A stretch of DNA of 64,000 nucleotides from Centroscyllium fabricii. Its lineage: Eukaryota. Positions 3,582 through 27,700 of the stretch are shown in pieces. The translations under genes and the position numbers were made by a program. The number at the start of each line of letters is the position of its first letter. Position 1 is the first letter of the stretch. Location of the stretch: the NCBI GenBank assembly GCA_051313645.2, contig JBNRSN020000014.1:119908001-119972000 (forward strand), given 5' to 3'. The notes under the pieces were generated by a model. It searched no databases and was not told the DNA's origin. It saw nothing but the letters and a program-made list of their open reading frames with translations.

Positions 3582-3749
3582 CTTGTTGTTGAACTTGTCC
3601 AGTGCCTCATTCAGTGTAGTTCTGTCAAGCTTCTGAACAAAGACAGTCAGTGCAGATTCATCTGACCTATTTAGAGCCTTTGGGCCAATGAAACACTGGA
3701 ATACACCAGTCAAGGCATCACTGCTTAAACCTGAAAGCAGTAGATCAAT
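3582..3749 (-). CDS. Exon E30 (0-0) IDLLLSGL...LDKFNNK
   Basis: ttgcag / gtatct, 168 nt. Confidence 0.85.
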
Positions 3750-6700
3750 CTGCAAAGCAATCAATTTAGAAAAACATATGTTGGGTTAAGGCATTGATGC
3801 AAAATACCACCAAGTGTGGAACACTCCACTATTGATAAATTCATTCCGTTTTATATGTGCTGAATGTGCTAGTAATAAGAACATAAGAATTAGGAGCAGG
3901 AGTAGGTCATACGGCCCCTCGAGCCTGCTCCGCCATTCAATAAGATCATGGCTGATCTTCAACCTCAATTCCACTTTCCCGCCCGATCCCCATATCCCTT
4001 GATTCTGCTCGAGTCCAAACTAAGAACCTAACAATTAACAACCATTATCCTGCAGTCTTAGAATGGAGCAGCTCTACAACTACTTTGTTTTATCGGAGTG
4101 TAAGCTGTCACAGACGTTCTTGTGTGAAACTCTGGACTGCGACATAGCTTACCTCAGCACATGCGTAGTCTGTAATGTTGAAGTTGCAGAGTTGGCTCAT
4201 GTTAACTTCAGTCAGGAAATTATTCAAAGTCGAACTGTGGGAGAGAAATAAATCTACTCTTAGGGAAGAAATTACACTGAGGAACAAACAACAGAATAAT
4301 TTATTTTGAATTCTCAACATGTCACATGATTTGAAACTAATCCAATTTGTTAACTACGTTTTCTAACAGTTTCTAAGTTATGCACACGAGAGGCTTTGGA
4401 TATCCTCAGTGTCAGGTGAAGCCACACACCAACAAGTTGACAGGGTTATTAAAACAGGGCCTCACTTGAAGCAGTGTGGAAAAGGTATTCTCCCCAAATT
4501 CTTACCTGTTCACAGCTGCACACAATGTTGTTTCTGTTTGAAAAGTAGAAAAAAATTAACATGCAGTAATTATCATACTAAAATTAACTGGTGAAATTAT
4601 TCAAAAAAAGTGTAGAAAAAGCACTCACCATTGACTGTGGTTTTACCAGGCTAAGGAAGAGAAAGCACAATAATAGGTTCAGTACTGAGCCATCTTAAAT
4701 TCATATTGATAAATGTTACATGATAAACTATGCATATATGTAAGTATTATTGCAGATTTTGAAAAAACATTAAACCACTGCCTTTTCCATAAACCAACAA
4801 GTGTAAATTTACTGAAATTCAACCAAAATATTGGTTTTCAAAACACATGTGGGCTAGAAATTGGACTGAAAACTGACACTTTTGAAAATACAAAGTGTTG
4901 AGTCTGTCTTACCGTATCAGGTTGGGGTTCTGAAAATATAACAAAATGGTTATTGTTAAAAGTTGGTCCTGATAATGTGTTACTATTCTTAACCACACCA
5001 TAACATTATACGATAGTACACTCACAGTTACTGATCTCAGAAGAGGAAATATTTCTGAAATGTCACATTCCTTTTGGCAGGTTCCCTCAATCCCATAATA
5101 TAATGGCCTCGATTTTCATTGAACCGTGGAGTCGGGATTGGAGGTGTGCGGGGGTTAAAATCCCGAAATCAGGGGTCCCGACCCCATCCCACCTCCATGC
5201 CAGTTTCAAAGGAGGCGGGAACCTGCCCCGAAATGGGATCCGCCTACCCGAGGCAGAAAGGGATCAGTGCCAATTAACTGCCTGTTAACAGGTAGTTAAC
5301 AGGCAGTTTTTACCCTAATCCCTATTATTAATATTGATGTGTGAGATTCTAGATGGCTCCAAACCACGCCAAGTTAGAGTCGTCGGGCCATCGGGTTGAA
5401 GGACTTGGCGGGGTCAAGATGTCGGTGTTCAGGTGAGTGATATGTGCATGAGTGCAAAGGTAAGTGTGTTTGGTGTGGCTAAAGTGATTAAATGGGCAGG
5501 AAATTCGGTGTCTTGCGCCTGCCGTTAGCTCCCTAAGAGGGCGCTAATGGGGCGCAAGGCACATAGCGCCTGAACTGCAGCCTCCCACGGTATTCAGTGG
5601 GGCGCTAACGTGGGTGGTAGCCGGTAGTGCCCCACTGAATATTAAACACTGTTCGCTGCCGGGGATGACGTCATAAGTGAGTGCAGCGCCACTCTGGGCC
5701 AGCGATTGAAATTGGGTAGCGCACGCTGAGTTTTCGGTGGGGGCTGCCCGCGACAGCTTCAACCTGCCGTAACTGCAGCGGGGGAGCGCTGCTTAAAGAG
5801 GAGGGTGCAGGGCGGCCATTTTTGTTGCTGGCCGACTGCCAGCACCTTCCCCCTATGCCGCCCCCAGCCTGCCCCGCTGCCCCCCCGCCCGCGGTGTGAT
5901 GCCTCCGATCAGAGCCCGGAACTTCCCTCGAGTGCCGGGCTCCTTCGGTGTCATGCCGTCCCACAGCGGCCCCGCGGGGCTCTGGCCGAAACTGCGCTAG
6001 GCCCCTCCCCTTTAATCGGGGAGGAAGGCCTGCAGTACCACGGAGCGGCACTCTGCGCTGCATGACGCAGCAACCCACAGCGCCCAGAACTTCGGCTGTA
6101 GCGCCTAAAGAACGAGGCTGGGCGCCTGTAATAGCGCCCAACCTCCGACTATGGGCGCTACAACCAAATTTCAGCGCTAACGGCGCCAGCAGTCGCAGGC
6201 GTTAAAGCAGTGCTGCACCGATGTTACCGCGAGAAAACGTGTGCAACCCAATTGATCCCCAAATAAGTTTTACATACCTTTTCTTACCTTTTCAGCTTTC
6301 CTTCCTTTAGGTCCCAGGAGTTCCTCATCTCACCGGCACAAAAAGCAGAAAGGCTGCGAACTGTCAAAAGTGACAGCCTGCAGCTTTCTGTGCAGGAGAG
6401 ACTTCTAACTGAGTCTGTGGAGACGGACTCGGGTTAGAAGCAAGGCTGCCAGTGTTTGACAGCTTCAAACAGCTGTGAAACACTGATATTTCATCTGTCA
6501 AAATGTCTTAACAGATGAAATTTCAGTCTCTGACTTCACCTGTTGCCGGGTGGCCCTGAATTGGCCTGCTGTGCGGGCTCAACAAGGTCAATCAAGTTAA
6601 ACTCGCGTGGATTGGCCGCATCTCGATGGAGGCGGGACAACAACCCCCGAAAGTTGCAATCTCACCTCCCATCCGACTTCTGAATGAAAATCACCCCCAA

Positions 6701-9700
6701 TGTGTCCACACCTGATGTTTGACATGTACTGTACTGTAAAATCGACGGGCCTGACAGTAAATCTTAGCCCCTTTAAGCATCTGTCACTGCCTTAGCTGTG
6801 CTAATCCTAAGGACTCTTGACATTACATTATAATCAATGTGTGCAATTAGTACAAAATGGCAATAAAACCAAAAGTGCAGAACTGTTATCACCAAGGAAT
6901 TATGTTGAAAGTGTCATGGAGGCTTTCACATACACGACAAAAAAACTACTGATATTTGAGCATAGTACTTTCTGGTTTCAGCAAGGAATTACCTGATGAA
7001 TTATCTGGAATTCCTCCTGTCAACCCAAGTCTCCTCACTTCAGACTCAGTATGTGAGGCCACCCAAACGAGCACTACTGTTTCATTCACTCCATCTTGAA
7101 GAGCTTGAAGGTTAAATCCAAGCAAGTCGATCAGATTCTGGGAATTCAGTTTCTGAAACAGAAAAAAAAATTGATGAATGAGTCCAACATATTAGATTTC
7201 ACACCTCATCAGGAACTTGCCCTTTATTAACTTGACAGCATGAAATCAAGGTGCAGGATGGGACTGGCAATGTTGGATTTGAACTCGTGATCAGTTTGCA
7301 GTATCTTCGATCCCTTACTAGAAGATTCATACATTACTCAGTATAAGGTACATCTTATACATTTCAAGTCTGTTGGAGTTATATTCTAACAATAAGTGAT
7401 GCTGGTCACTGCAGTAAGTGGTCCCCACTTCTTGTGTTCAGGAGCGTGTCTGGTAGTGCCCAATATATAATTACATACTTGCATAACTTGAGGGCGTAAC
7501 AATAGCATCACCTTCTGCTGTCATCTAGATATTGCATCTCTCACATGCACCCTCACGTATGCTTGTCCCATCTTTCAATATGAAGACTATAAACCGCACT
7601 GCCTTGTCATGCGTTAGCAGTTCAGCCAGAAAATAAGTTATTTGACCTAAGGGCGGCACGGTGGCACAGTGGTTAGCACTGTTGTCTCACAGCACTGGAG
7701 ACCCGGGTTCAAATCCAGCCTCGGGTACTATCTGTGTGGAGTTTGCACATTCTCCCCGTGTCTGCGTGGGTTTCCTCCGGGTGCTCCGGTTTCCTCCCAC
7801 AGTCCAAAGATGTGCGTGTTAGGTTGATTGGCCAGGATAAACTGACCCTTAGTGTTATGGCGATTGAATATGTGGGGTTACGGGGATAGGGTGGGATATG
7901 TGTCAGTGCAGGCTCGATAGGGATCGAGGGGTATGGGGATAGGGCAGGGGTGGGCTGCTGGGTTTGGATGATCAGCCATGATCTCATTGAATGGCGGATT
8001 GGGCTCAAAGGGCCGAGTGGCTTCCTCCTGCTCCTGGGTTCTATGTTTCTCACAATTTACAATATTATTTGAACCACATGCCCAGTGTCCACTGTATTCT
8101 TTTGCTGAGATGTCTATTATTTAGAATTCTAAAGAGTGCAGCATTTACTGTGGGTTTTACAGCCTTTCCATTCATTATAGTTTCAATCATATAACACCAG
8201 ACACAATTACTTCCTCTACATTTATATTACTGAAGGGCAATTCTACAATGACATGCGATCAATCAACAGCACGGTTTCAGGATCGATGGGCTGAGAATGA
8301 GATGTGAGATAAAGAAACTGGAATCACAGCCATACTAATATAAGCAGAAGATCATAATCATACTGTACATACCTTTACTTCTTCAGGATCCAAACCCTTG
8401 AAGGTTGCAAAGTCCATGTTAACCCTATTATTTGCAAGATACTTCAGATCATCAGCTGAGGCTCCACCTGAAGAAAACAGAGACATTTGTTACTTGCCCT
8501 CTACAGTATAACAAGTTATACACCTTGGCGATGACCTTTGAGGGTAAGGCGAGTGCGGAAATATGTATTCCTGCCAGAGGGGAAGGAGGCCTAATAAATA
8601 GGGAGGCGGCCTTGGACGATTTCTTGGTATATTGCCCCAATAACTTCTTGAAACGAATTTTCAAAGGGGAAGCATCTGTTGGCACTCTTCATGTTCAAGT
8701 AGCAGTTTGGGAGAATTCCTGAGCACCCCACCCTAAGGCGCACTGATCCCACGCTTGGTGGGAGCAGACTTGCGTTCCGTACTGGGCCTTCCACAGTCCC
8801 CAATTGCAGAACTGAGATAATTGATGCAAGAATGCATCTAGTTTCCCCATTGGAGTGGCAGAGAGCTGCTTGGATTTTCCGTTGAGCAATTGGGACAGGG
8901 ACCTCTATAGTCCCCCTGCAGGCATAGATAGGCTCCCCCAAATATTAAGAGAATTTGGGACTGGTTCAACTTCCTTTTCAGACAGGAGTCCTGCTTCAAC
9001 GCACTTCTAGTGGTGGCGTGTGGTTCCTGGAATTCCAGCTCTATCAACTTCAAGGAGAAACAAAAATTCCAGTGAAATCATTCTTCTGCCATTGTTGCTT
9101 TTCCAACAGCACTCATCATTATGTAATACAATGGAGTTTTAATTGCTGATTTCTGCTAATTTTATCAAATTGTAACAAAATTGGGTCAGCGATAGATTTT
9201 AAATATAGCGAATTCATCAAAAATGAACAGACATGAAATGAACGGAGTCAGCTGTTGCAGCTGGTTAAACTGCAGCAATATTTTTGCACACACTTGAGGG
9301 TCCTTAAGCCTTTGCCAATCTGAGCCTCTGAATTAGGTAAGTAGAGTGTGTGAATTCCAGAGCAGACAGGCAGAGACTCTGCCTGTGAGCACCTCAGGAG
9401 CTTAGATTGAAGACACAAATATGAAGATGGTTTCCTTGTGAGTCAGACACCTGGCTGAGCAAAAAAAATAAGCCTAATTTTACTCACCAACATACACCTT
9501 TATCAGGTGAAAGTAGGGGATCGGGTTACTTTGCTGAGAGCTCAGTGCAGAGAGCGCCTGACTGTAAAGCAAGTTTTTCTTCGACTGTGTGCACACAGAA
9601 AGATCCAGAGCTCCTGCATCTCTGTGGGAGAAAGGTTGCAATGTTAATTTTGTTTTGCATTTCTGCAACTGCACCAGGTAAGGGCCTTGTCGCTGCACTT

Positions 9701-12700
9701 TTCAGCCCAAAGAGATTTACCCAATATTTTGGCAATATGTGGTAGAGTGTCCAATAGAATGTGCGACGTATCCAAGTTTGCCGTCGATACTAAGATGGGA
9801 GGGAAAGCAGTGAGTGAGGAGGACATAAAAAACCTGCAAAGGGACATAGACAGGCTAGGTGAATGGGCAAAGATTTGATAGATGGAATATAATGTTGGAA
9901 AGTGTGAGGTTATTCACTTTGGCAAAAAAAATCAAAGAGCAAATTATTATCTAAATGGAGAGAAACTTCAAAGTGCTAAAGTACAAAGGGATCTGGGAGT
10001 CATGGTGCATGAAACACAGAATGTTAGTGTACAGGGACAGCAGGTAATCAGGAAGGCCAATAGAATCTTGGCCTTTATTGCAAGGAGGGTGGAGTTTAAA
10101 AACAGGGAAGTCCTGCTGCAGTTATACACGGTATTGGTGTGGTCACATCTGGAATACTGTGTGCAGTGTTGGTTTCCATATTTGAGAAAGGATATACTTG
10201 CTCTCGAGGCAGTTCAGAGAAGATTCACTCGGTTGATTCCGGAGATGAGGGGGTTGACTTATGAGGAAAGGTTGAGTAGTTTGGGCCTCTACTCATTGGA
10301 GTTCAGAAGAGTGAGAGGCGATCTTATCGAAACATTGTGAAGGGGCTTGATCGGGTGGATGCGGTGAGGATGTTTCCACTGATGGGTGAGACTAGAACTA
10401 GGGGGCATAATCTAAGAATAAGGGGCTGCCCCCTTTCAAAACTGAGATGAGAAGAAACTTCTTCACTCAGAGCGTGGTGGGTCTGTGGAATTTGCTGCCC
10501 CAGAGAGCTGTGGAAGCTACTACTTTGAATAAGTTTAAAACCGAGATAGACAGTTTCTTGGAAGTAAAGGGAATTAGGGGTTACGGTGAGTGGGCAAGTA
10601 AGTGGACGTGAGGCTTGGTTCAGATCGACCATGTGATCTCTTGGACAAGTTTCGATCGCCTAGATGGGTCGGAGAGAAATTTTCCAGATTTTTTCTCCCA
10701 AATTGGCCACTGGGTTTTTCTCAGGTTTTTCACCTCTCCCGGAAGATCGCTTGGGTTAGGGCGGGATGGAGAGTGAAAGTAGATTTGAGGTTAAGATCAG
10801 ATCAGCCATGATCTTGTTGAATGGCGAAGCAGGCTTGAAGGGCCGATTGGCCTACTCCTGTTCCTATTTCTTATGTTCTTATGCCAAACTCTCAATCACA
10901 TCTCCCAGCGTAATTCGAACTTTTACTGACAATGGGGCAGAAATTCCGATGACCGCGGGGCCGCAGTGCGTGAGTAGGGAGTGGGTACACACGCGTACGG
11001 CCCTGGAATTGTAGGTAGACGCCATTTCCCTGGGATACCTGCAATTCTGAAGAAGACCAGCAGGGGGTCGGGAGCTGAATCGCATTGGCCTGCGCACCAG
11101 GAGGTGCGCAGTGCACGTCCGATTTGTTTCAGAGTTTTTGATCGGGGTAAGTATTGAAGATTTTACACCTCAAAATATCAGCCGTAGCGACCCCTTTTTA
11201 GCAGGTAAGTCTTTATTTTATAAAATTTAAGTATTTTTTTAACAGGTTTTAAAAAAAAATTAACTTTAAAGACAGGTATGTACTTTTTTAGGGCAGTTAA
11301 AAACTTTTTTTTAAATGTCAAAATTTTTATTTTTTGTTTAAAATAGGTAATTAATTTTAGTTATAGTAATGTTAAAAAAGTGATGTTTAAAAATTTTTTA
11401 TTTTACTGTTTAATGTGTTTTTGAGGCTCTTCCTTTTCATAACTTACACAGATCTCTCTGTTAAAGTTATGAATGGAGGATTCCTTCCATTCATTGGCTC
11501 CCCGCGGACCACATGGTCCCACGCGAGCTCTCGAACTAACTCCGTCGCTGAGTTGCCTCAGCACGGCGCCTGTGGCCTGGAGCAGCACTACAAATCGGAA
11601 TTTCAAATCCCAGAATTGGAGAACGGCAGGAGCGCAGGGTAAGTGGACTTCGGAGGCTTGCACACGCAGGAAGCCTCCGAGGCTAATTTTTGGGCCACTA
11701 TCAATTCAGTGACTCATGTTTGAAAGGGCATGTGTATTCACTGGGAGACTTTAGCAGAGGGCAGGATTGGCTTCTGCTGTGATGCTTTCCATAGAGAAAT
11801 AGCCTGCTCACGTGGCTCACACTCAACGAATAGTTGTTTGGACTGGGTACAGGCCTGTGGCAAATGTACACCAGAAATGTTCAATGTTCAAAATTCAGAA
11901 GTGATTGAACCGGTGAGAGCATTCTGTCAGCTGTGAAGTTGTTCAACAAGGTGTCTCCTCATCACTGTTTGCTTCACAATTGCACTGCACTATGTCGCTT
12001 CATAGACTAACTTTGGTTCTGATGTAAATGGTCACAATTCACTCGTCAGGAAACTTGCAATGAAAAGATGCGACACTTACGTCAAGTTTGAAATTGCCAT
12101 CAGCTGACTTTCATCCAGAGTACACAAGTTGGCTCCACCAATAGCTTTCAATGAAACTGCGTTTAGAATACCATCTAATTGGAGGTATCTTGTAATGATG
12201 GATTTAACCTGCAGAAGGAATTTTAAAAATTGTTCATACCTCACTGTTACATAGAAGGACGTGTAATTTAAGATGCTGCTTTATTTGATGCTCGTTTTCC
12301 ACAAATTTATAACGACGCAATATTTGCATAAAATTCCAATAATTGTACTATTCTCCTTTTGGAAAATATCCATCAATATATTTTTTAATTGCACCTCATA
12401 TTATTTATCAAATTTCCACTGTACCATTGCCCATTCCCAGCAATTACACACTGTACCCAACTTCCTGCAGCTGTTTCAAAGCACTGGCCCAAGGTGGTTC
12501 TGGTTTCAAGGAAAGACAAAGGGGGCAAAATGGAATCGCGCCCATTTTTGGTGCGCTAACTTCGCTGGGGCGCTACTTTTAGCACCCCGGAAAAATTAGC
12601 ACTCCTGCAGCCAAAATTGAGTGGTAGCGCCCCAAGAGGGAAGCGGGGTGCCGCGGTATTGCAGGCCTTCCTCTCCTTCTTAAAGGAGAAGGGCCATGCA

Positions 12701-15700
12701 TAGAGCGACACCGAGCCCAGTTGGGTCACCGGGGTTCGGAGTGCTGGGCTCATGGAGCGCAGCTGGCACTCCGCGGGGGGGCGGGTCAGGATGCCGCAGA
12801 CGGTTGCGCAGGCAAGTGCTTGCAGGCGGCCTGCAACAAAAATGGCAGCCCCGCATCTCGCTTTTAAATAGCGCTGCCCGGCTGCAGGTAGGCCCACCTG
12901 ACCCCGTCGGACATAGCGTCCGGCAGTAAGACACAGGGGGCGATACCGAAGATCGTGGAAGGGGCGCTGCGCACAGTGATGACGTCATCGCCAGTGGCAC
13001 AGCGCAGCGGGGCGCTAATAGTTACCGCCGCTGTTAACCTCCAGCTGAATTTCGCGGGAGGAGTTGGTGGCGACATGCCCGGGCGCGAGTTGCTTTGCGG
13101 CCCATTAACGCCCTAACCGTTGGCGCCCTCTTAGGGCGTTAACGGGAGGCACAAAGGAACCGAATTTTTCCCGCTGAAGGTCTTAAACTTCAGAGAGCAA
13201 ATTCCACATTTCACTCATGATCAAGTCACATGTCTGCAGATACCAATATTTTCACATTAATATTCTCCTGGTTTCAGTACCGTTGTGATTTCCAACTGCG
13301 GCATCATTAATGCGGAAAGTGTCACAACTTGCGTGATATTCCAGCTGCTGACTTCTGTCGCATTAAACACTGTGGCTATCCTCCCCAGCAGTTGAATCTG
13401 GCTTTCTGGTAGCCCATTGGGATAAATCTGTTTCAGGAAAACCAAAACAATAAAATTCAGTCAATTTGTTAGGAGTGATCAGCAGTATTCAAATCCAGCT
13501 TCAAATTCCTTTTTGGATCTAGAATATTTAGCAACAGCTTATTTCCAGATCTGTTCATTAACCCTTGACCTTACTGGCTGGAATCTTTACCTTAGAGTCA
13601 GGGCGGGAGCGTGCAAACGGCACAGCGGGTCGCCCTCCCGAAGTTTTCAACAGCGTGTTCTGCACTGAGCGTTTAACTCAATTACATCAATTGAAACAAT
13701 CACGTGGGTTTCCTCGGCCAATTAAATGGAGAGCGTCTGATGACGTAACCGATGACTTGCTTTCAGCTCAGGTATTTAATGGAGTCTTGCACACATCCCA
13801 ATTGAAGGTTGTTGGAGGAGGCTTACAGGTGGTTGGGAGTGGTGGCTATTGGTCTATATTGAAGAGATGTGTGTGGGTGCAAGCAAAGATGGAGCCACAG
13901 CGATAGAAGGGTGCGCCCAAGAGAGAACCGGAGGTGGCCCGCCAATATATACTAATTTGACGACTGCAGAGGAGGCCCTCGAAATAAGTGGCGTGACAGA
14001 GCTGCTGGTGGTGGGAGACGGAGAGAGGGGGACCTCCCAGCAACCTGCTAACAGAATTAAATATCCCGCATGACATACAACAGTCACTCATGGTGACTAA
14101 TGTCAGCAGACAGTGAAATATCATCATGTGCATACTGGTAATGTTACACATTCTTATCATAAGTGTTTTATTCATGACTTTACTCTCCCACAGGTTCATC
14201 AAGAGCACCCACCCCCACTGTCCAACCGGAGGAGGAAGACGACTCTTCAGAGGAAGCTCCATTCTCGGAGGATGCACAGTCACCAGACCCATGTGCACTC
14301 AGCAGCAGCGCAGATCTATACACATCAGTGGGTCCAGCAGGACATGGAGCAGTGCTGTCACCTGGTGTCTCATACATCTCAAGTGAGCAAGAGCAGATGG
14401 TGGAGACAGGGAGAGGAGTGGAGACTCCTCGCTGGAGGGCGCATCACGCTCCAACCTCTGCTCAGCTGGATGCAGATGCTGAACCTCGGGGGCTTTTCCA
14501 GCCACAATCGGTGCGATTGTAGAGAATGGAGAAATCCATCTCTAACATGAGCACCACCATATCACAGGTGATGGCAACAAAGTGCTGTTCCATGGAAAGG
14601 ATGGCCTCCTGCATGGAGCAGCTCAGGTGCCAGTCGAATGTGAACAACAGATTGCAGTCTCTCACTGACTTCATCTTTAGGAGGGATACCAACATAGACT
14701 TAGACCTTCATTGCCCCACTGCGATGTCCAGTTCCATGCAAGCAGGGAAGTGTAGGTGGCCCATGAGAGGGATGATGTTGAGAGGGGATGTGGAATTGGG
14801 GGCTCTGCGCAAAGTGCTCCCACTTCTCCACCACTGACTCCCCCTCAGGCAGAGCCCCACATGCTGCTTTGGATCCCGATGGCTGAGTCTGCCCTTGCAC
14901 AGGTGCAGGAGGAGCAGTCTTTGCCGGGTGCCCTCACAGGCCCTAAAACCCAGAGGACATCCATCAAAAGTGTCGAAGCAGTCACAGCAGAGAAGTAGCA
15001 GCCTGCCTCTACCTATTCCCTGGCTGTGGCAGGAAAAGAGCAGCCAGAGAAACCAAGAGGGCATAGCTGGAGGGTGTCTTCCGAAGTTGCTGAAGCCACA
15101 GGGGTTGCACCTCGTAGAAGCACTCGGAAAAGAAAAAAGACACAATCGTAGATGCACATGCGTGTTTGACAAAATGTTGGTGGTTAAGTTTCACTTCTAT
15201 TTATGATGCACATAAATTTATTTATTTGCACTACTTTCCCATCTTGTCCATTTTTGCCTGCTACCTGGGAAGTGGCTGGGTTACCTGAAGTGAATGATGA
15301 GACATTACTTAACCTTGAGCAATGAGGATATGGTTGACATGAATGGTTTGGTCCTTTTAGGACTGCTTTGTGGTGTTGGTGGGCGGCAGGGGGAGAGAAG
15401 TTGGTACAGAATCTGGGAGTCAGATGGTGCACTGGTACAACTTAAGTAAATCGGGCCATTATGAGGCCATCTCCACTTCCGGTTCCTTCTCCTCCACCTC
15501 GCGTTCCAACTGTTCCTCCTCCTTCGAAGAGGCTGTTCTCTCTGCGCCTTGCTCCTCCTGCAGCGAGCATTTAGGTGGTGGAAGACTTCCGGTTCACAAA
15601 CACTCCTGGGTGATGTGCGGTTGCCTTGCTAGCCACATATGAGCAGCCAGAGCCGCAACACCGAGCACCCGCTCAGTAACACTAGCTTCATCAGTGACGA

Positions 15701-18700
15701 CATTTACATACGTGGCTTACGTGTGAAACATGGCATCGGTCACCTGGGTGATGCATTTGTGGGTGGCCGTCTGAGAGATCCTGCAAATGTCTGCTGCAGA
15801 TCCTGGAAAAAGCCTGAGGCGAAGAAGTTGAGGGTGGTGGTGACTTTGACAATCACTGGTAAGGCATGTTCACCAGGCCCTCTGGGCAGCAGGTCATCTT
15901 CCAGCAAGTTACAAATGTCTGCAACGACCTGGCATGATAGCCTGAGCCTCCTGAAGCACTGCCGTTCAATCATGTCCAGGATGCTCATCTTCTGTCTGTA
16001 TACCCTGCGTTGAGGGTATAGCCTTCGGCGCGGTGCACCCCTGTGCTGATCCCCTCTTTCATGTGGAGCATCAGGTCGATGAAGAGAAGGCTGCTGGTGT
16101 CGTTGCCGTTGGGGCTCATTTTGGTCCAAATCCGAGTTCCAAGGTGAGACTGCATAACTGGCACCCATGCAGATCTGATAGATGCCAGGTAAAGTGGAGA
16201 TCAGAATTCTCCAATGAAGTGAGAGTGACTTGTAATGTGGGGAGGGTGTCTTCCGAAGTTGCAGAAATCACCTGCAAACTCCTGAAAGCAAAATCTCTGC
16301 ACAAAATCGTGTCATCAAGTGGGAGTAAGTCAATGATTGGTCCAGTGAGGATCCTTAGGTTTTGAATGATTGTAAGGGAACAAGAAGGCAGTCCCGACAG
16401 CCACAAAGGGTGGAAGATTTCAGGAAGAATCCAGGGGACACCAGAGAGACAAGTGACAAAAGGCACAGGGTGCGGCCGAGTTACAGTCATGACTTTGACC
16501 CAGAGCATAACGGGGTAATGTAAGTCTCAATTATACTCTGTAAACTGCTCTAATACTAAGGTATAAAGCCTTGCTTGTGTTGAATAAAGTTAAATCACTG
16601 TCACCGATACGGGTCAACTTCGAACCTTTTGCAATCAGTGTGCCTCTGGGTCACTTATCTCATAGCTATTTCTGATACCTTCCTTTGTGCAAAGTGGTTG
16701 TCACATTCCTCTCTATTATAACATCACGGCAATTTAAAAATTGCTTCATTTCCTGTGAAGCACTGTGGGATGGCCTGAGGCAGTGAAAGGCACTATATAA
16801 ATGCAAGTACAAAAGCAAAATATCGCAGATGCTGGAAATCTGAAATAAAAATGGAAAATGTTGTAAATACACAGCAGGTCAGGCAGGATCATTGGAGAGA
16901 CAAAAAGAGTTAATGGTTCAGGTGGATGACCTTTTGACGAACCCGACCTGCTGAGTATTTGCTGCATTTTCTGTTTTTAGATAAATGCTAATTTCTTCTT
17001 TCTCTCTTTTCATACCTGTAATAGTCTCTTTTTCAGAACTTCCAGCTGAGTAGAATCAAAGGCAAGAGATCCCAGTTGGAGGACATTGTTTTTCAGCACA
17101 AGTTTACTCAAACAGAGGTCTAACTGGGCGGCATCATAGATTGCAGGTGTCAGGTCATTAATGGCTTCTGCTGCTATCGGTCCCTCTGTACAGACTGGAA
17201 ACAAAACCTTCTATTAGTTATAATACTTCAGTTTGCTGGTAAACATGCTCTCAAAATATCAAAAATGACCATTTAATCAAAGCCATTCCTGGATTACTGA
17301 ATTGCCGGTGAAAGGTAACACTGGTGAAATTATAGATCTGCAATTGAAAAAGAATATTTTAGCATCACTTTGCTATTTTCAGCATAGTGACCTTACTCTG
17401 TCACCCGCAGAACAATGGACACTCAACACAAAGCTATATGGGTTGCGGGACAAGTAAGCAAACTGCACGTGTCCATCAAGATCCTCTTGTTCCATTGATG
17501 CTCATGAACAATGTTCCCGCTAAGGTGCCCGTGCACACGGCCGCACAGTAATCTGAAAGGTTATATTGTAAATACCGCACATGCACACAAACTTCAAGGG
17601 ACTCCGCATTAAAAGAAGAAGGCCGCGCAAAACAAAGCGCAGATTCCAGGGAACATTGCTCATGAACTGAGGCTGCATCATATTCATAAATGAAGGACAG
17701 TCCTGTCCTTTCACTGATGACTTATGCTCTACATACATAATGGTGCTTCTCCTGCAGCATCCTGGAACTCCCTCGCTAACATGCACTGCGGGAGTACCTT
17801 CACCACACAGGCTGCAGCAGTTCAAGAAGAAGGTTCACCTTCTCAGGGGCAACTAGCGAGGAGCAATAAATGCTGGGCTTGGCAGCGACGCCCACATCCC
17901 AAGAATGAATATAGAATAATATGAATTACATACTTGCTGTATTGTTTGATCTTCCTCGTAAATTGAGCTGATTTATGAATAACAGCAGGTCACTTGGGGG
18001 TTGCAATCTTTTTGCTTTTTTAATAAATCTTGGGAGAGCTTCATTAAGGACAACCTGCATGGGACAAAATGAGAAAAGCTGAAGAATGTCACAGAAAGAA
18101 TATCTGATTTCATACAGTTCCTGATTTGCCTGCGGTAACATTTGCAAGAAAACATATTTCACCAACGAAAACATTTGCTGGAAAACATTAGTGCTAGTGC
18201 TATACTGGAAAGAATGGTGCTTGCAGGACAAAGGGACGATTGCCATGCAATTCACAAGCCCACCCTCCAACATCTAATTCAATGGAAGCCTCCAGTGCTA
18301 AGCATGTTTGAAAAAGAACACAACCACATGTAAAAGGAGCTCTGCGTAGAGTTCTCAATGAGCCTCACCAGATTCTAAGAAATCTACAATGATTTAGAAA
18401 CCAACACATTTTCAGATTCAATTTTGGGCCTCCAAATATAGGGTTCAACAAAACCACCACAACCATATTATAGGTCAGTGACAAACTGCCCAATATCATC
18501 GTCCACGTTAATGAAGTTACCATGCATGTCATTGTGATTTCAAACTGGAACTCATTTTTATGTGGATGCAAATGTTTTGATCAAATAAAAAGTGAAAACA
18601 TATCTTCATCACGTGGGATTTGGGTCACTTAGTGTTTCTCAAGAACAGGTTTTAACTGAAGAGTGTATTATAGTCCAACCAAGATTTTCAGTGGGGTTAT

Positions 18701-21700
18701 TGTCTCACAAATTTAGCTATCTGAATCAATTTTAAACCAAGTAAAGCATACCCTGTTTACTTGGGTCCATGTTTCGGTCAAAGCCAACGGAAGATTTCCT
18801 AGATCGCGTATTGTAGATGACGACCAAGATGAAGGAACACTACAGAAAAAGAAGACGCTCTGAGTTAAGAATACATTCCTATAACTGCCACCTTAAAAAT
18901 ACAACTGATAAGTACCGTCTGTGTTTCAACAGCAAATAATCTGCAACGGATATCCTCTAAAAATTCATGCTCCAGCTTTTCTGAATTACACTGAGCAATT
19001 TTAAAATCCCATGCCTAACACCCAAAAGTCACCGTACTTTCAAAATCATTCCCATGAAAATATACACAGAATTTTCCAACTGAGATGTGGAGGAAGGAAA
19101 AACTTGAAAATTAAGAACCCTTTTCTCACACACTTACAACTACCTTTCTTCTGGCCACAGGCTGCTAGAGCAGTCAGTAGAGTGCTTAGGAATATGGTAA
19201 TTGCAAAACAAAAAAAGACCAAGGTTCATCTTGTTCACCTTCTACCATCCTGCAAGTTGCAAGATACAATGATATGGAGTTGTTGACTAATCATGGCGAT
19301 CAATCTCTATCAATTAGTCTGCAACAAATCCAGACATCAGGTGAGGAAAGCCCCAGTGGTGGAAAGCTTTGGGAACCATAGGTCCACAGTTACTTGTTCT
19401 CCCAAGCATGCACGCACCTCTCCTTGCTCGACCAAGGCGGATTTCAGGCCCAAGTCTGCTGTTATTTCAATTCACTTGCTTCTACTACGGTATACATGGG
19501 GATTGTTGTGTAGACAGTATCCACATTCCCCTTAGAAAGTTCACAGTATTACACGAAGCAATGAAGCATGAAAATAAGAGACTCTGGTGTCATCTGTAAG
19601 GAAATACGTGAACATTTCACACTCACCCGTATTTGCTGGCTCCACTCTGAAGGAGAACTTCAATTGCTCTCTTCTGATCCTCTCTGTAGGAAATGCAATT
19701 CTTTAATGCATCCAAAATGGAAATATCAGATTCGGTGATAATGGATCCCTCGAGGTCACAGACCAAAACACCCAGTACGGTCACACTTTCCTTCGTCAGA
19801 TTTCTGCCAGAAATTCGCTGAATTTTGGCAAAATGATCAACATTAATTCAGCAGTACAATAATTCTTTGCACACAAATGAAACTCAGTTCATCTTTACCA
19901 TTTGAAGACGACAACAGTGGCATGAAATAACAGTGTCAAAATTCATCAATATTATCAAGAAAATGAGAAATATTCATTTGGCCATGGACTTCATTTTAAA
20001 CTCAGATTACAGCTTCAGCTGAATGGATCCCAAAATATTTTGCCACTGATCAACAGTGCAACATTCAGTCCATTTCACCACTTTAACTGGGCAATTCAGA
20101 TACAAAACTTTCTACTCTAACCTAGTATAATGGGAGTGAAGCGTAAGTAAGGAAAGTGTTTGTAATCCCCAGAAATCTTTGGAAGTGCAGTCAATGTTGT
20201 TTTGTAGGCAAAATTTGAAGCCAATTTACACACAGCCAGGTCACACAAACAGGCAGAAAGGCCTCATGTGAAAGACAGCACATCCCACAATACAGCACTA
20301 ACTGTCTGTACAGATTATGTGTTCATGTACTGAAGTGGGACTTTAACTGACAACTTTCTGATACACAGCTAAGAGTGTTACCGTTCAGCCAAACAAACAA
20401 TGTTGTGGTTGGCAGGTTCAAGATGAAACAGGATGCAACATATACACTTAACGAAGCATGTTTCAGAAATGTTTTATTTCAGGCTGGGACTCTCAAAGGA
20501 AGGGACTATTTCCAGTTGTCTATCAGTATATTAAAAAGCTTAGAAATCATATGATGTTCCATATCATGATAGTAATGCTCACTTTGTAAGCACAGCCGAC
20601 TGCATTTGTGGTTACTAAAGAGATTTTATTGCACTGATCTAATGACCTAACAGCCTTTACTCATTCCTACATTCTCAAATTCTTATATTCTAACCAATGT
20701 ATCAATGATCAAAACTCAAAAGCAAATACTGACCATTTTGGAAAGGAGGTAGCTGTGGTAATTAGAGCGAAGAAACATCCCAAAGTCTTCCACCCCCTAA
20801 GCCTGGGCACTGAGGACAAATGTCACATCCAGGCCACTGGACCTGGTGTCCAGTAATTGAGTTATTATCAGTTTATTGTGACCATGTCTAACACTTCGGT
20901 TCGTATTGGCCCTTGAAGGACCAACTCACTTGGCATCCTAATACAATAGGTGGTATGGTGAGACATTCCTTATAATCATACATTGTGCCAATGTGTGATT
21001 GGTTAGAGGAGTGATGCTCCTTTTCACAATCAGTGCTGTCCATGATGCTGGTTTTATTAATCCCTAGCTTGTACCTGCTGAGCGCTTTATCCTTACCAAA
21101 CAGGTTCTGGCATCATTCAACATATTTCGTCGTCTTGCTGATCGTTTTCCTAAGATATTAATGTTTGATTTCCCAACTAATTTGAAGAATGTCTGGCAGT
21201 TGGAGGATCTCCTGAAGTGTGCAGAGCTACAAAGTGAAACAGGAGATAGGTTCAGATTATATTAAGGAGGATGACCAGATTGATTGGTGACTTCCATAGT
21301 CCCAATTGTCTCTCCTTTTCTCCCTTCTTCTACTCAAGGTGCACACAGTCAAAGAATTTCACACACATACAAACACACGCACACACTTCCCAGATGGATA
21401 TCAGTGTGAGATCCCCAAATCTTCCACCTCTGGGCATTGAGGACAATTGTCACAGCCATACCACTGCCTTCACATCATCTCATTTTGTAACATTAATTTA
21501 TGGATTATATGCACAATGAAAGAGTTAAATATTAGAATTTTAAAAGCTTGTTGGTTGAGTCAAACTCAAACTAAACAACATTCTATGCTGTTCTTTTGTT
21601 TTCCTCCTGAATCATTCTCGAGTTACTTTTTCAATAGATGTCCCAGAGGCATATACCCTTGACATCAAACATCATTCACAAACACAGGTAAAATAGAGGG

Positions 21701-24700
21701 AGGTGGTGACCTGCTCCTGGCTGTTGAGTGTAGTAGATCGCGTTAATCTCACCTCTAATTTTCCTCCCTTATAAAATCATAGAATAGTACAGCACAGAAG
21801 GAGGCCATTCGGCCCATCGGGTCTGTGCCGGCTCTTTTGAGGAATAATCCGTTAGTCCCACTCTCCCGCTCTTTCCCCATAGCCATGCTTTATTTTCTCC
21901 TTCAAGTATTTATCTAATTCCCTTTTGAAATCTATTCAATTTGAATGCCCCACCCTATCAGGCAGTTATATCCCAAAGGCAGTTACAAGTTAAAGCGCTC
22001 ATGGGTCCTTACGGATTTCATTATCAAAGCTCTTTTCAACAAAACAATTGAGGAAAATGTCGATAAAATAGAACATACTTGAAGAACAGCAGAACATCCA
22101 CAGGGAAGGTGTCTATGGCTAATCGCGTTCCATTAGAAGTTAATCTAGCAGCCATACAGTCCAGCTGAAAAGAGAGGCCACAAATTCAGGTTGTGAACAG
22201 AAAGATAAAAACCTACATTCGTTGGTGATGTTCCTCAGGACACCCCATTTTCTTTTGTTGTAAATGGCTTTCTCTGAATTTGGTGAGCAGTTGATTATAG
22301 AAAGTTTTGCCAAATCACAACAACCAACATTTCACCTCCATACAAACTGTAACTTACGACTCGACTCAGCTACATTTCAGACTTAAAATCATTTTCACTC
22401 ACATTTTCGTCCTCGGGAATTTGACATGTATCTACAGGAAACAGTATCCCCCGGGTGCTCCGGTTTCCTCCCACAGTCCAAAGATGTGCGGGTTAGGTTG
22501 ATTGGCCATGATAAATTGACCCTTAGTGTTAGGGGGATTTAATATGTGGGGTTACGGGGACAGGGTGGGATATGTGTCGGTGCAGGCTCGATAGGGATCG
22601 AGGGATATGGGGAGAGGGCAGGGGCGGGGTACTGGGTTTGGATGATCAGCCATGATCTCATTGAATGGTGGAGCAGGCTCGAAGGGCTGAATGGCCTACT
22701 CCTGCTCCTATCTTCTATGTTTCTATGAAACTCTTTTTTTATCCGGCACCGACAGGACCGGCGTGGTGCTGGTTTATCAAAAAGTCAGGATTACAGAGAG
22801 GTATTGTTAAAAGGTACAACAGGCCATAAACTCAGGCTTCCCTGTTGCTTAGCAACAGCTTCAAGAACAAATCCAGGCTTCCCTATTGCTTAGCAACAGG
22901 TGCAGGAACCCGATTACACAGCCACAGATCCAGGAACCGCCACTAATATGCAGTAAAACTTACCTGAACCTACTCCTGAATTTTGCCGGTTAATAGAGAA
23001 TTCAGGATATTTAGGTGCCGTTTAAACGAGAGTTTACTGTACTTGAATATCAAGTCGGGGAGCTATCACACATTTTGTTAACTCAAGTCAATCTTGCAGT
23101 TAGATAGTGGAATGGGCATCTTACACGGTCAACTGTCCATGCTGTAAGATTCTGTACTTCAGTCATTTGGTCAATGTTGACCATAGCCATTTTGTCATGT
23201 TCTACCCTAGTCCTGATATTACAGGGTAGATTTAACAAATTTGTGCTCCTGGCACTGACCCTTGGTGCTCGGAGTACATATCATGAATTAGAGCGTGGAG
23301 GTCATTGAGTCCCATAGGATTTTCCATTCATTAAAATTTATTTGCAAAATACACTCTGTTACTTTTACATTTAAGAACATAAGAAATAGGAGCAGGAGTA
23401 GGCCATTCGGCCCTTCAAGCACGCTCCGCCATTCAATGAGATCATGGCTAAACTTCTGCTTCAACTCCATTCACCGACCCTATCGCCATATTCTTTGATG
23501 CCCTTACTAGTCAGAAATCTAGCGACTTCTGTTTTGAATATACCAAATGACGTAGAGAATTCCACAGATTCACCACCCTCTATGTGAAGAAATATCTTCT
23601 CAACTCAGTCCTGAATGGCCTACCCTTGATCCTGAGGCTGTGGCCCCTGCCAAGGGGAACATTCTCCCAGCATCCATCCCATCAAGCCCTGTAATGATTT
23701 TGTATGCTTCAATGAGATCCCCTCTCATTATTCTGAATTCATGAGAATACAGGCCTAGTTTACTCAATCTCTTCTCATACAACAGTTCCGCCAACCCAGG
23801 AATCAATCTTATGAACCTTCGTTGCATTCCCTTCTATGGCAAGTATAACCTTCCTTAGGTAAGGAGACCAAAATTGTACACAGTACTCCAAGTGTGGTCT
23901 CAGCAAGGCCCTTTATAATTGGAGTAAGACTTCTTTACTCCTGTACTCAAATCCTCTTGTAATGAAGGCCAGCATACCATTTGCCTTCCTAAATGGCTTG
24001 CTGCAGTTCCACTTTCACTTTCAGTGACTCATGTACAAGGCCACCCAGGTCCCTTTGTGCATCTGCATTTCCCAAATCTTTCACCATTTAGGAAATACTC
24101 TGCCTTTCTGTTTTTTCTACCAAAGTGGATAACTTCACACTTATCCACATTATATTCCATCTGCCATGTTCTCGCCCACTTACTGGGCTTGTCGAAATCC
24201 CCTTGAAGCCTCTTCACATCCTCTTTGCAACTAACACTGCCAGCTAGCTTTGTATCATCAGCAAATTTGGGAATGTTACATTTAGTCCCCTCATCCAAAT
24301 CATTGACATAGATTGTGAATAGCTGGGACCCAAGCACCGATCCTTGCTATACCCGACTAGTCACAGCCTGCCATCCTGAAAAAGACCAGTTTATCCCTAC
24401 TCTTCGTTTTCTGTCTGTTAACCAATTCTCAATCAATGCTGGTATATTACCCCCTATTCCATGTGCCCTAATTTTGTTCACAAACCACATGTGTTGGACC
24501 TTATTGGAGACCTTCTAAAAATGCAGATACACCACATCTACCGGTTCCCCTTTGTCTACTCTACTCCACTAGTTACATCCTCAAAGAACTCCAATTGGTT
24601 TGTCAAACAAGATTTCCCTTTCATAAATCCATGTTGACTCTGTCCAATCTTACTATTAGTTTCTAAGTGCCCAGTCATTGCATCCTTTATAACAGATTCA

Positions 24701-27700
24701 AGCATTTTTCCAACTACTAATGTGAGGCTAAGAGGTCTGTGGTTCCACGTTTTCTCTCTCCCTCCTTTAAATAGTGGAGTTATATTTGTTATCCTCCAAT
24801 CTGAAGGAACCATTCCAGAATCTATAGAATTTTGGAAGATCACAACCAATGCGTCCACTATTCCGATGGCCACCTCTTTCAAAACCCTAGGATTTCGGTC
24901 ATCCGGTCCTTGGGATTTATCGACTTTTAGTCCCATTAATTTTGTTAGTACTGTTTTTTACTAATAATTCCTTTAAGTTCCTCATTCTCAATTAAACCAA
25001 TCCATCAGCAACAATGGAAAATGTGCTTAATGGGAATACACTCAAACTTTCCTCCAATGCGATTTTTGTGAATGACCTCACCTGACTTTCATCAAGCACG
25101 ACCCCTTTACCCTTCATTGCTTGAACAAGCTGAATAAATGTCGGATCATTCAGGGTCTTCACTGCACCACAACTGAAGCCTTGCAGGACAGAGGGTGAGA
25201 ATCTGAAACAAATAATGGCATCATAAATTCATTTCTAAATAACTCACTTTCTTCGTAACTTTCAAACCTGTTATCACAATCTCTACATCATTTATATTTG
25301 TAACACAATCATCCATTGAGTGACTGGATCTCCACTTTATTACATTTTACCCATCTGAACACCGAGATACTGGGCCTATTTCAGCAATCATGAGGGGCTG
25401 AGTTGTGGAACGAGGGCTATCACACAAGTTTACAATCTGAAATGTACACCCACTTGGGCCAAATCATTCAACTCAATGTAATAATTTCAGTTGATGCAAG
25501 TTCTGCTGCAGCCTAATGTGGCTCACTGTATGCCTGAAATCTTCATTTCATACTTTAGAGCTGATCAAACAGGAACTTTTGGATTCTAAGAATTACAGGG
25601 GACACATTGACCAATTGGAGCTCCCAAATTTGGGACCCAGAAATAGTTATTGTCATTGCATTGGACAAAATATTCAACTCGTAAACATTGCTCTGTGAAA
25701 GATAGTGCGAGCATTCCACTCACAACAGGTTTAATTATTGACTTAAACTAGAACTCCGTTCCTTGGATAAAAGATTCTGCTCTACAGATTATGGCCGCGA
25801 TTTTACCTGAAGAGGCGAGTTGGGAGCGGGTCAGCTGACTTGTGGGTTCTGATCCTGCCCCCAACGACGCCCGACGCACAGACGCTATTTTGCGTCAATT
25901 GGCCTGGTTAAGCCTGCCCTGCAGACTTGCCGGCCAAGTAAGAGAAAGCCGGTGTCAGATGACGTCAGTTGAGGACGCATCATCTGCAAGTTTTCTTAAA
26001 GGGGACACGCTCATTTTTGTTTGACAGAATATTTTTCAATGTTTAACAGCACTGAGGTGCTGCAAACACTGACAATCAGTGTACAAAGGTGACCCCTTGC
26101 ACCCAGACTCTCCAGAGACCCTCTTCTTAGGATAGAACAGATGGCAGCTGAAGGTGAGGTTACAGAAGCAATCTGTCACTGGTGAGAGAGGTTCTCCCAA
26201 TGAACTGGGACTACACAAACACTTCAAACTTTACTATCTACAGAAAAGTCTAGTGGGGAGAAATTTAGAAACATAGAAACTAGGAGCAGGAGTAGGCCAT
26301 TCGGCCCTTCGAGCCTGCTTCGCCATTCAATGAGATCATGGCTGATCAACCAAACCCAGTACCCTGTCCCTGCCCTCTCCCCATATCCCTCGATCCCTAT
26401 CGAGCCTGCATCGACACATATCCCACCCTATCCCCGTAACCCCACATATTCAATCCCCCTAACACTAAGGGTCAATTTATCCTGGCCAATCAACCTAACC
26501 CGCACATCTTTGGACTGTGGGAGGAAACCGGAGCACCCGGAGGAAACCCACGCAGACACGGGGAGAATGTGCAAACTCCACACAGATAGTACCCGAGGCT
26601 GGATTTGAACCCGGGTCTCCAGTGCTGTGAGGCAACAGTGCTAACCACTGTGCCACATTGCCGCCCTAATTTGGTTGCTTTCCGCCTGCCGTTAGCGCTC
26701 TAAATTCTGTGGGAGGTTAGTGACGGCGGTAATTTTTAGTGCCCCACGGTACTGCCCCACCGGCGATCACGTCGTCACCGTGCGCCGCGCCTGCTCGCGA
26801 CCCGGCCGCGATCTTTGGTAGCGCACCCTGACTTACTGCCGGCCGCCACATTCGACGGGGTCAGGGGGTCTAACTGCAGCCGGCGCGGCGCTTATTAAAG
26901 GCGAGGTGCCGGTGGACATTTTTGTTGCTGGCCACCAGCCAGCACCTGCCTCCGTTGCAGTCCCTGGTCTTCTGAGCAGCACCCCCCGCCATCCCCAGAG
27001 TGCCGGGGGCACTCCATGAGCCAGCACTTTTGCCGGCACTCTGCTCCCAGTGGCCCTGGGTCGCACTGCGCAACGCCCTATCCCCTTAAGGGGAGGAAGG
27101 CCTACAATACAGTGCCGCAATATCCCCTCGCAGCGCCCCAAGAGGGAGGTGGGCCGCGACCAATGAATTTTGGCCGCGGGGGTGCTAGTTTTTTCGCCCT
27201 CTTGGGATGCATTACCAATGAATTTCGGCCGCGGGTTGCTAATTTGTTCGTAGCGCCCCGGTGACGTTAGAGTCCCAAAGGGGGCGCAGCTCAATATTTT
27301 CCAATGAATCAAAAATGATTTTCCAGCATTTCTTAGCTCTGAAACTCACCAGTGTGCCATTGGATCCTTCACACAACTTGCAGCTATCATCAATGAAGAA
27401 ACATTACAGTAGACCCACAACACGCCACACTTACCTGCCACGGTGTCCAGATGTCGGGAAGCCCGCTGTCGACCTGGCAAATTTGGAGAAAGCCTCTTAA
27501 CTGCCTCTTAACAAGCAGTTAAGTGGCTATAATCCTCTTCCCGCCGCTCGAAGTCGGATGCGTGCACAAATCGGGGACCCGACTCCCGGGAAGATTGATT
27601 GGAGGCGGGTTGGAAGCGGGTTCGGGACCCGCTGCCAATCTTTGATTTTGCCAGCAGTCTCCCCTTCAAACCCGACCACTGAGCACCGGCAAAATCGAGC

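Follow-up and report, generated by a model that had tools for sequence, protein, structure and literature searches.

How are the repeated units of a very large mesothelin-like gene joined to one another, when the exon that would anchor the protein in the membrane does not appear where a unit ends? The question arises from a 64,000-nt stretch of the cartilaginous fish Centroscyllium fabricii (contig JBNRSN020000014.1, positions 119,908,001 to 119,972,000; hereafter the window), which contains parts of three copies of a 34.3-kb unit. By its sequence the gene is a member of the mesothelin family: exon matches to PF06060 above the Pfam cut-off number 11 in the genome, 10 of them at this locus, and the family is also matched by 6 of 6 relatives. 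The closest proteins to one of its exons come from sharks (84–86%), followed by rays and chimaera (67–77%). An initial annotation of the window proposed that the glycosylphosphatidylinositol (GPI) signal exon of mesothelin is replaced here by three micro-exons encoding a flexible linker. From an analysis of the surrounding 844 kb (contig 119.57–120.41 Mb) we conclude that the micro-exons are in-frame joints of tandem units and likely constitutive copies of the small exons that follow the signal-peptide exon of the gene.

Module junctions and the two ends of the gene

The mesothelin domain of module 5 ends with exon E25 (6993..7152; 160 nt, phase 0 to 1; all coordinates are those of the window, minus strand, unless contig positions are stated), which is homologous to the C-terminal portion of solved mesothelin, as shown on relatives. 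After a junction intron of 2,063 nt made up mostly of repeats (4930..6992) come the micro-exons E26 (4913..4929; 17 nt, phase 1 to 0), E27 (4629..4650; 22 nt, phase 0 to 1) and E28 (4506..4533; 28 nt, phase 1 to 2), followed by E29 (4153..4234; 82 nt, phase 2 to 0) and E30 (3582..3749; 168 nt), the second and third exons of module 6. E25 to E28 all have AG/GT ends, and the micro-exons score 5.8–6.4 as acceptors and 4.7–7.4 as donors compared with module medians of 5.0 and 4.4, approximate values from a matrix that is a rough consensus. The three exons, their open frame, the linker peptides and the polar read-through peptide of 15 residues described earlier for this junction were all reproduced on re-derivation, as was the frame argument: E26 and E27 together make 39 nt, skipping either one alone shifts the frame, and E25 can be spliced directly to E28 in frame. 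When the exons are included, an N-x-T sequon is created in the sequence across the E27/E28 joint.

That the micro-exons join modules in one frame is borne out by the rest of the gene. Module 5 (4629..38816) is a complete unit of 34.3 kb with 30 exons, whose 3,786 nt encode 1,262 residues without a stop, including 28 N-glycosylation sequons and 21 Cys. The junction from module 4 to module 5 is the second copy in the window (38789..41435), with E25 at 41435–41276, E26 at 39212–39196, E27 at 38933–38912 and E28 at 38816–38789. In total the gene spans about 630 kb of the minus strand and is predicted to contain about 328 exons and 13,992 residues in ten modules with nine junctions, the exon and residue counts being approximate because the automated chain over-extends two exons and misses at least one. 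From the eleventh exon of module 1 to the third exon of module 9, 232 exons give 9,713 codons that are free of stops and have AG/GT ends throughout, and the divergent 5′ part and modules 9 and 10 can be chained on without a phase break. Close copies of the micro-exon region occur eight times on the contig and those of E25 ten times. A triplet of (3n+2)/22/28 nt with the same phases is present at 9/9 internal junctions; E26 measures 17 nt at junctions 1–7, but junction 8 has a 23-nt form and junction 9 one of 20 nt. When the 844 kb are scanned for candidate triplets of 10–35 nt exons placed 60–400 nt apart, the gene strand yields 8 or 9 places and the opposite strand 0; this contrast is seen at 4/4 thresholds, the first of which was chosen after the scores had been seen, and amounts to about two independent events because 8/9 places are copies of one another.

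The 5′ end of the gene has a triplet with this layout too. The first coding exon, located by means of the N-terminus of skate proteins (52–57% identity, E value down to 4e-7), is 64 nt long, starts with ATG and ends in phase 1, and by homology and composition it has the character of an N-terminal signal peptide; a homologue search with an N-terminal exon gave no match. It is followed by exons of 32, 22 and 28 nt (phases 1–0, 0–1 and 1–2, with introns of 272 and 99 nt) and then by an 82-nt exon. The junction exons of 17, 22, 28 and 82 nt have matching phases and introns of 262 and 95 nt. The two kinds of 28-nt exon have 16–17 of 28 bases and a Cys in common, and by these measures E28 would be a copy of the fourth coding exon of the gene and E27 probably one of the third. 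Skate proteins, two of them from 10.5-kb Logan contigs, start with matching signal-peptide and triplet peptides.

At the other end, a GPI-type exon is found after module 10 only. It has 35 codons with a Ser run, a hydrophobic tail and a stop, its start lies 278 nt from an AATAAA, the tail is conserved in relatives, and on these sequence features it qualifies as the C-terminal GPI signal. The E25 equivalent that precedes it in module 10 measures 187 nt, nine codons longer than E25. The interval 4930..6992 had been singled out as the place where a terminal exon could overturn the linker proposal; nothing hydrophobic opens there in phase 1 (20 candidate acceptors, best hydropathy 1.11 compared with 2.0 for the real GPI exon), none of the nine junction introns contains such a candidate, and no second copy of the GPI exon or trace of its 3′ untranslated region was found in the 844 kb. 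The word ‘replaced’ is nevertheless misleading, since the gene retains one GPI exon, after module 10, and the triplet has a counterpart at the 5′ end. The GPI exon would be missing from the junction intron because the anchor exon lies outside the duplicated unit.

The introns that follow the ATG exon and each E25, and the one that precedes the GPI exon, are all of phase 1, so that the stretch between the intron following the signal exon and the intron preceding the GPI exon would form a symmetric 1–1 unit. Given such symmetry, unequal crossing-over can multiply the unit with the frame intact and without copying the signal and anchor exons, and the 5′ micro-exons would be carried along at each duplication of the gene body. 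Modules flanked by phase-1 introns are termed class 1–1. The present gene resembles known class 1–1 duplications in having a phase-1-flanked unit in tandem between signal and anchor exons, but those modules are domains of one or two exons, whereas a complete gene body of 30 exons and 34 kb is the unit here. A published discussion treats phase symmetry as a sign of module duplication, together with disorder (PMC3632108).

Three smaller observations concern the same exons. The E25 donor lies inside an apparent 12-nt tandem duplication (6984–7005), and ray and skate proteins suggest that a donor 9–12 nt upstream of it is used at some junctions. Near 6287 a strong donor might have marked an alternative exon, but it sits in high-copy repeat DNA and was set aside. 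Once the skate N-terminus had placed the true first exon, two false candidates for it could be discarded as well, one lying 8 kb upstream of the 5′ triplet and the other, a repeat, 46 kb upstream.

Inclusion and structure of the joint

Are the micro-exons included in the transcript? Two sequencing runs bear on this: X2, a DNA run that is possibly the source of the assembly itself and covers exons and introns alike, and X1, which covers exons and not unique intron DNA, and which contains a fraction of 0.08 of the words of a stretch that is about 8% exon. Across the junction intron, X2 cover is continuous and X1 cover is absent on the unique parts. E25 is covered from end to end by an X1 contig (record 8). 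In the 876-nt contig, letters 578–739 match E25 and 137 nt remain, exactly the length expected with full inclusion (17 + 22 + 28 + 70 for E26, E27, E28 and part of E29). The bin depths are close to whole multiples of the contig depth and place about 19 positions on E27, 29 on E28 and 70 in E29, these 70 nt being covered at the depth of record 8; X1 cover of E30 ends at the end of the exon. From these lengths and depths, and for E26 from the length, we infer that the contig fits inclusion of all three exons. A contig of X2 matches the 23-nt form of E26 (about 20 differences and 7 gap letters over 212 letters). In relatives (27 proteins), 26 internal junctions are listed, of which 14 have linker peptides (8 species of cartilaginous fish, with the Pro/Thr type in 5) and 12 are direct joins; these rows are non-independent, come mostly from predicted models and have exon borders deduced from peptides.

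The structure of the joint was predicted on a relative. For the bamboo-shark junction (293 residues; a 29-row alignment of modest quality) AlphaFold2 gives an all-helical model, in keeping with a solenoid, with a mean predicted local distance difference test score (pLDDT) of 91.3. The first ~80 residues superpose on C-terminal mesothelin with a root-mean-square deviation of 1.1–1.2 over about 82 columns at an E value of 0.03; Foldseek returns no match at E 0.001 or better, and its top rows are mesothelin. The pLDDT falls below 50 only at residues 84–93, which by counting correspond to E26 with one residue before and two after, and a helix at residues 95–103 corresponds to the end of E27 and the start of E28. 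Because of this model, the flexible part would comprise about 10 residues and E28 would belong to the next domain. The Pro/Thr hinge of the initial annotation thus survives in part: E26 is likely to be a short, disordered, Pro-rich spacer, the length of which would drift by whole codons, whereas E28 and the end of E27 are predicted to form the first helix of the next module, with the glycosylation sequon across the joint. On the model E28 is predicted to be the first exon of a Cys-containing helical domain, and many relatives start with a signal peptide and the same Cys motif as E28.

Several points weigh against constitutive copies of the 5′ exons. The 22-nt exons at the junction and at the 5′ end have only 4 of 22 bases in common, although the module-9 copy has 8 of 22 and keeps the first Cys, and E26 agrees with the 5′ 32-nt exon in position and phase but not evidently in sequence. 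The homology of E26 and E27 to the 5′ exons, which we regard as likely, is thus based on length, phase and position, and on the first Cys in module 9. X1 is a single run, taken as RNA by guess only, in the form of contigs from which rare forms are dropped, and E26 is placed in its contig by length only. The continuity of the gene is supported in pieces, neither a read nor a contig spanning the whole. The X2 depth of the shared unit is 40–44 (63.5 for one contig) and that of the module-8 contig is 9.5. The ratio comes to about 4 to 7, whereas the assembly has seven near-identical copies, so that the copy number is uncertain. Finally, ‘constitutive’ may be wrong because 12 of the 26 junctions in relatives join directly without the two exons, and one junction includes them in thorny skate whereas little skate lacks them.

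The last point leads to the alternative that survives best, namely that E26 and E27 act as a regulated cassette: as in the co-ordinated skipping suggested by the initial annotation, both would be left out together in some tissues or modules, which would tune the spacer length and one glycosylation site. Such paired skipping is permitted by the frame. According to annotation, the same junction contains the two exons in Amblyraja radiata and not in Leucoraja erinacea or in a Logan-contig protein, a Rhinoraja model contains an E26-like peptide, and the E25 bin of X1 holds an unexplained second contig signal of about 456 depth-positions. However, the X1 contig passes the junction at inclusion length, the splice scores of the micro-exons exceed the module medians, and the direct joins of relatives may equally represent genomic loss or missed annotation; the difference between the two skates fits paired skipping, lineage-specific loss or missed annotation. 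We therefore regard a regulated cassette as possible but rather unlikely. Regulated micro-exons of the neural type are 3–27 nt long, frame-preserving and alternatively spliced. The exons here, with 17, 22 and 28 nt, are not multiples of three, and only the 17 + 22 pair preserves the frame. A paired cassette is in any case compatible with an origin by duplication of the 5′ exons.

It is distinctly less probable that the linker exons arose de novo, or that E26 is the decayed remnant of a GPI exon, when anchored genes fused. E26 and the GPI exon both open in phase 1 with a Glu codon, and the missing likeness between E26 and the 5′ 32-nt exon would also fit. Yet the 844 kb contain no trace of a GPI exon or its 3′ untranslated region elsewhere, and E27 and E28 agree with the 5′ exons in length, phase and spacing, so that a fusion or de novo origin could apply at most to E26.

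Proposed unanchored isoforms and putative cleavage

If the gene has one anchor, at its very end, how could the protein leave the membrane? It had been suggested that intron retention at E25 would release shorter, unanchored isoforms after any module, and we find no support for this in the junctions. The read-through stop is present at junctions 1–5 and lost at junctions 6–8, and the read-through peptide at junction 9 is unrelated. The first poly(A)-type hexamer lies about 970 nt into the intron at junctions 1–7 (in the window copy it sits in repeat DNA), and junction 9 has none. RNAs that retain the intron without polyadenylation would likely decay. X1 cover is absent in 6688–6961, a weak argument from contigs only. 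Two skate gene models (P0160 and P0012) do end in read-through at an E25-like exon, but longer skate proteins run on past the stop of P0160. There is human precedent in the soluble variant 3 of MSLN (PMC4247962) and in splice variants over exons 15–17, the minor variants being called inconsequential in cell lines (PMC8946840). The idea of a ladder of short isoforms, made by intron retention or intronic polyadenylation after E25, thus has a precedent in human but no support in this gene, and we consider it very unlikely.

Release by cleavage is likelier than release by intron retention, because furin-type sites remain in modules 9 and 10. Human mesothelin is freed by furin and sheddases (PMC2628672; PMC13080647; PMC10035497). 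In the present gene, the exon that ends at the position of the mesothelin furin site (17934..18054 in module 5) has no R-x-K/R-R motif in modules 1–8, whereas R-S-K-R is found at its end in modules 9 and 10, where cleavage is putative. Sharks and rays mostly have the same pattern, with some terminal sites matching in part. The solved mature mesothelin aligns to the module of a relative from just after the exon 18054–17934, that is, from just after the furin position (E value 4.7e-24). According to hand-summed exon lengths, cleavage at the module-9 and module-10 sites would free some 12,200 residues, and about 330 would stay on the membrane, close to the 327 residues of human mesothelin (PMC2628672). 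The gene product would be helical, GPI-anchored and heavily N-glycosylated, with a length of about 14,000 residues.

A wider picture can be offered tentatively, with less confidence than the origin of the joints. A cartilaginous-fish GPI-anchored mesothelin precursor may have grown to about 14,000 residues by duplication of the whole gene body, with cleavage sites retained only close to the membrane. Cells would then shed a glycoprotein of megadalton scale, a giant MPF, and keep an ordinary mesothelin on the surface. Optional micro-exon pairs could adjust the joints, and the number of units could vary between species and perhaps individuals. Ten copies with cleavage motifs in the last two only provide a natural comparison for the roles of the MPF part and the mesothelin part. 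The normal function of mesothelin is poorly known and there is no knockout phenotype (PMC2628672).

Growth of the array and known relatives

Exons 11–27 of modules 1–8 differ by 1–24 of 2,330 nt; the codon variants comprise 21 synonymous and 18 non-synonymous changes. This suggests recent exchange among modules under purifying selection; the module introns differ by insertions. It is highly improbable that the locus consists of a row of separate genes, or was over-expanded in assembly, and that its joints are unused. In favour of this are the 99.84% identity over 26 kb of the two best-covered copies, modules 4 and 5, an X2 depth ratio as low as about 4.4 and several RefSeq models that split the locus. 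Against it, only one ATG/signal exon and one GPI exon were found, the copies differ in the exons as just described and in intron length, relatives have single models of 4,700–7,881 residues, and an X1 contig crosses the joint, even if the exact copy number may be off.

Individual modules carry marks of their own. Module 1 (contig 120119250–120149132) is a mosaic in which exons 5–10 are 72–89% and exons 11–27 are 98–100% like the internal unit. The direct first junction of relatives is missing from this assembly, which suggests that a crossover replaced it. In module 2 the fourth exon is shortened in frame by a 15-nt deletion (contig 120057917–120058147; 197 compared with 212 nt). Module 9 is otherwise divergent, but two of its exons (contig 119733472–119733352 and 119713688–119713542) match the internal unit at 99% and 91% identity, which suggests local gene conversion. 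In three modules the beginning of exon 24 has a partial copy of 80 nt about 500 nt upstream of that exon (contig 119884182, 119848758 and 119993663). An insertion of 2.9 kb at 454–3326 is found in an intron of module 6 only and contains a 939-codon minus-strand frame that is endonuclease/reverse-transcriptase-like; we take it to be a CR1-type long interspersed nuclear element, and its restriction to module 6 marks a recent event after duplication of the unit. A further intronic element with transposase-like frames, presumably Harbinger-like, was copied with the unit (13800–16600 and 48100–50900).

How does the gene compare with what is known? It has in common with human MSLN (PF06060; PDB 7UED, 8FSL and 8CXC) the signal peptide, an MPF-like part, the furin position, the mesothelin solenoid and the GPI signal. 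The human precursor is one 622-residue unit encoded by 17 exons (PMC8946840). Instead of the single MPF and mesothelin unit of about 620 residues that defines mammalian MSLN proper, we find a predicted length of about 14,000 residues in ten units, each extended on its N-terminal side by a helical region of several hundred residues, and in addition micro-exon joints and no furin motif in units 1–8.

Multi-module mesothelins are already known as uncharacterized RefSeq proteins. In cartilaginous fishes these include models from whale shark (XP_048465576.1, 4,700 residues), zebra shark (XP_059510198.1, 7,881), thorny skate (XP_032896963.1, 7,628) and little skate (XP_055507061.1, ‘mslna’, 2,223), which have the same module order, two types of junction peptide, the terminal GPI tail and the N-terminal peptides. 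They differ in having 3–4 internal junctions compared with nine here, where eight units are 99% identical in exons 11–27, and in a first junction that joins directly without the two exons, a type not found in the present assembly. Large repeat-expanded mesothelin-like proteins also occur in bony vertebrates, for example in sea bass (mslnb, XP_051242506.1, 4,675 residues), axolotl (XP_069503376.1, 6,351) and catfish (XP_060716102.1). Several of these start with a signal peptide, a short Cys peptide and a Cys-containing domain, but many have a long Ser/Thr-rich stalk after the E25-like exon instead of a micro-exon joint. A 2,855-residue protein (P0045) and the axolotl model (P0017) repeat whole modules with different linkers, which suggests independent expansions. 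In the literature searched, mostly without subscription papers or supplements, no paper describes a multi-module mesothelin in fishes; a table of the catshark semen proteome has a row for a mesothelin-like protein, not shown to be this gene (PMC11083954).

An ordinary mechanism accounts for the micro-exon joints. Through them, however, one sees a whole gene body that clearly behaves as a symmetric module, and a mesothelin relative some twenty times as long as the human protein, which is apparently still growing in 34-kb steps and often split or unnamed in annotations. A second mesothelin-like locus lies 4.7 Mb away (contig 124918001–124928000) and has the same 3′ exon layout; a search of about 9 kb did not turn up its GPI exon. 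Within the gene itself, duplication is also seen on a smaller scale: in the N-terminal region (contig 120164284–120209295), a sub-repeat of four exons (119/~165/209/104 nt) occurs in about four tandem copies.

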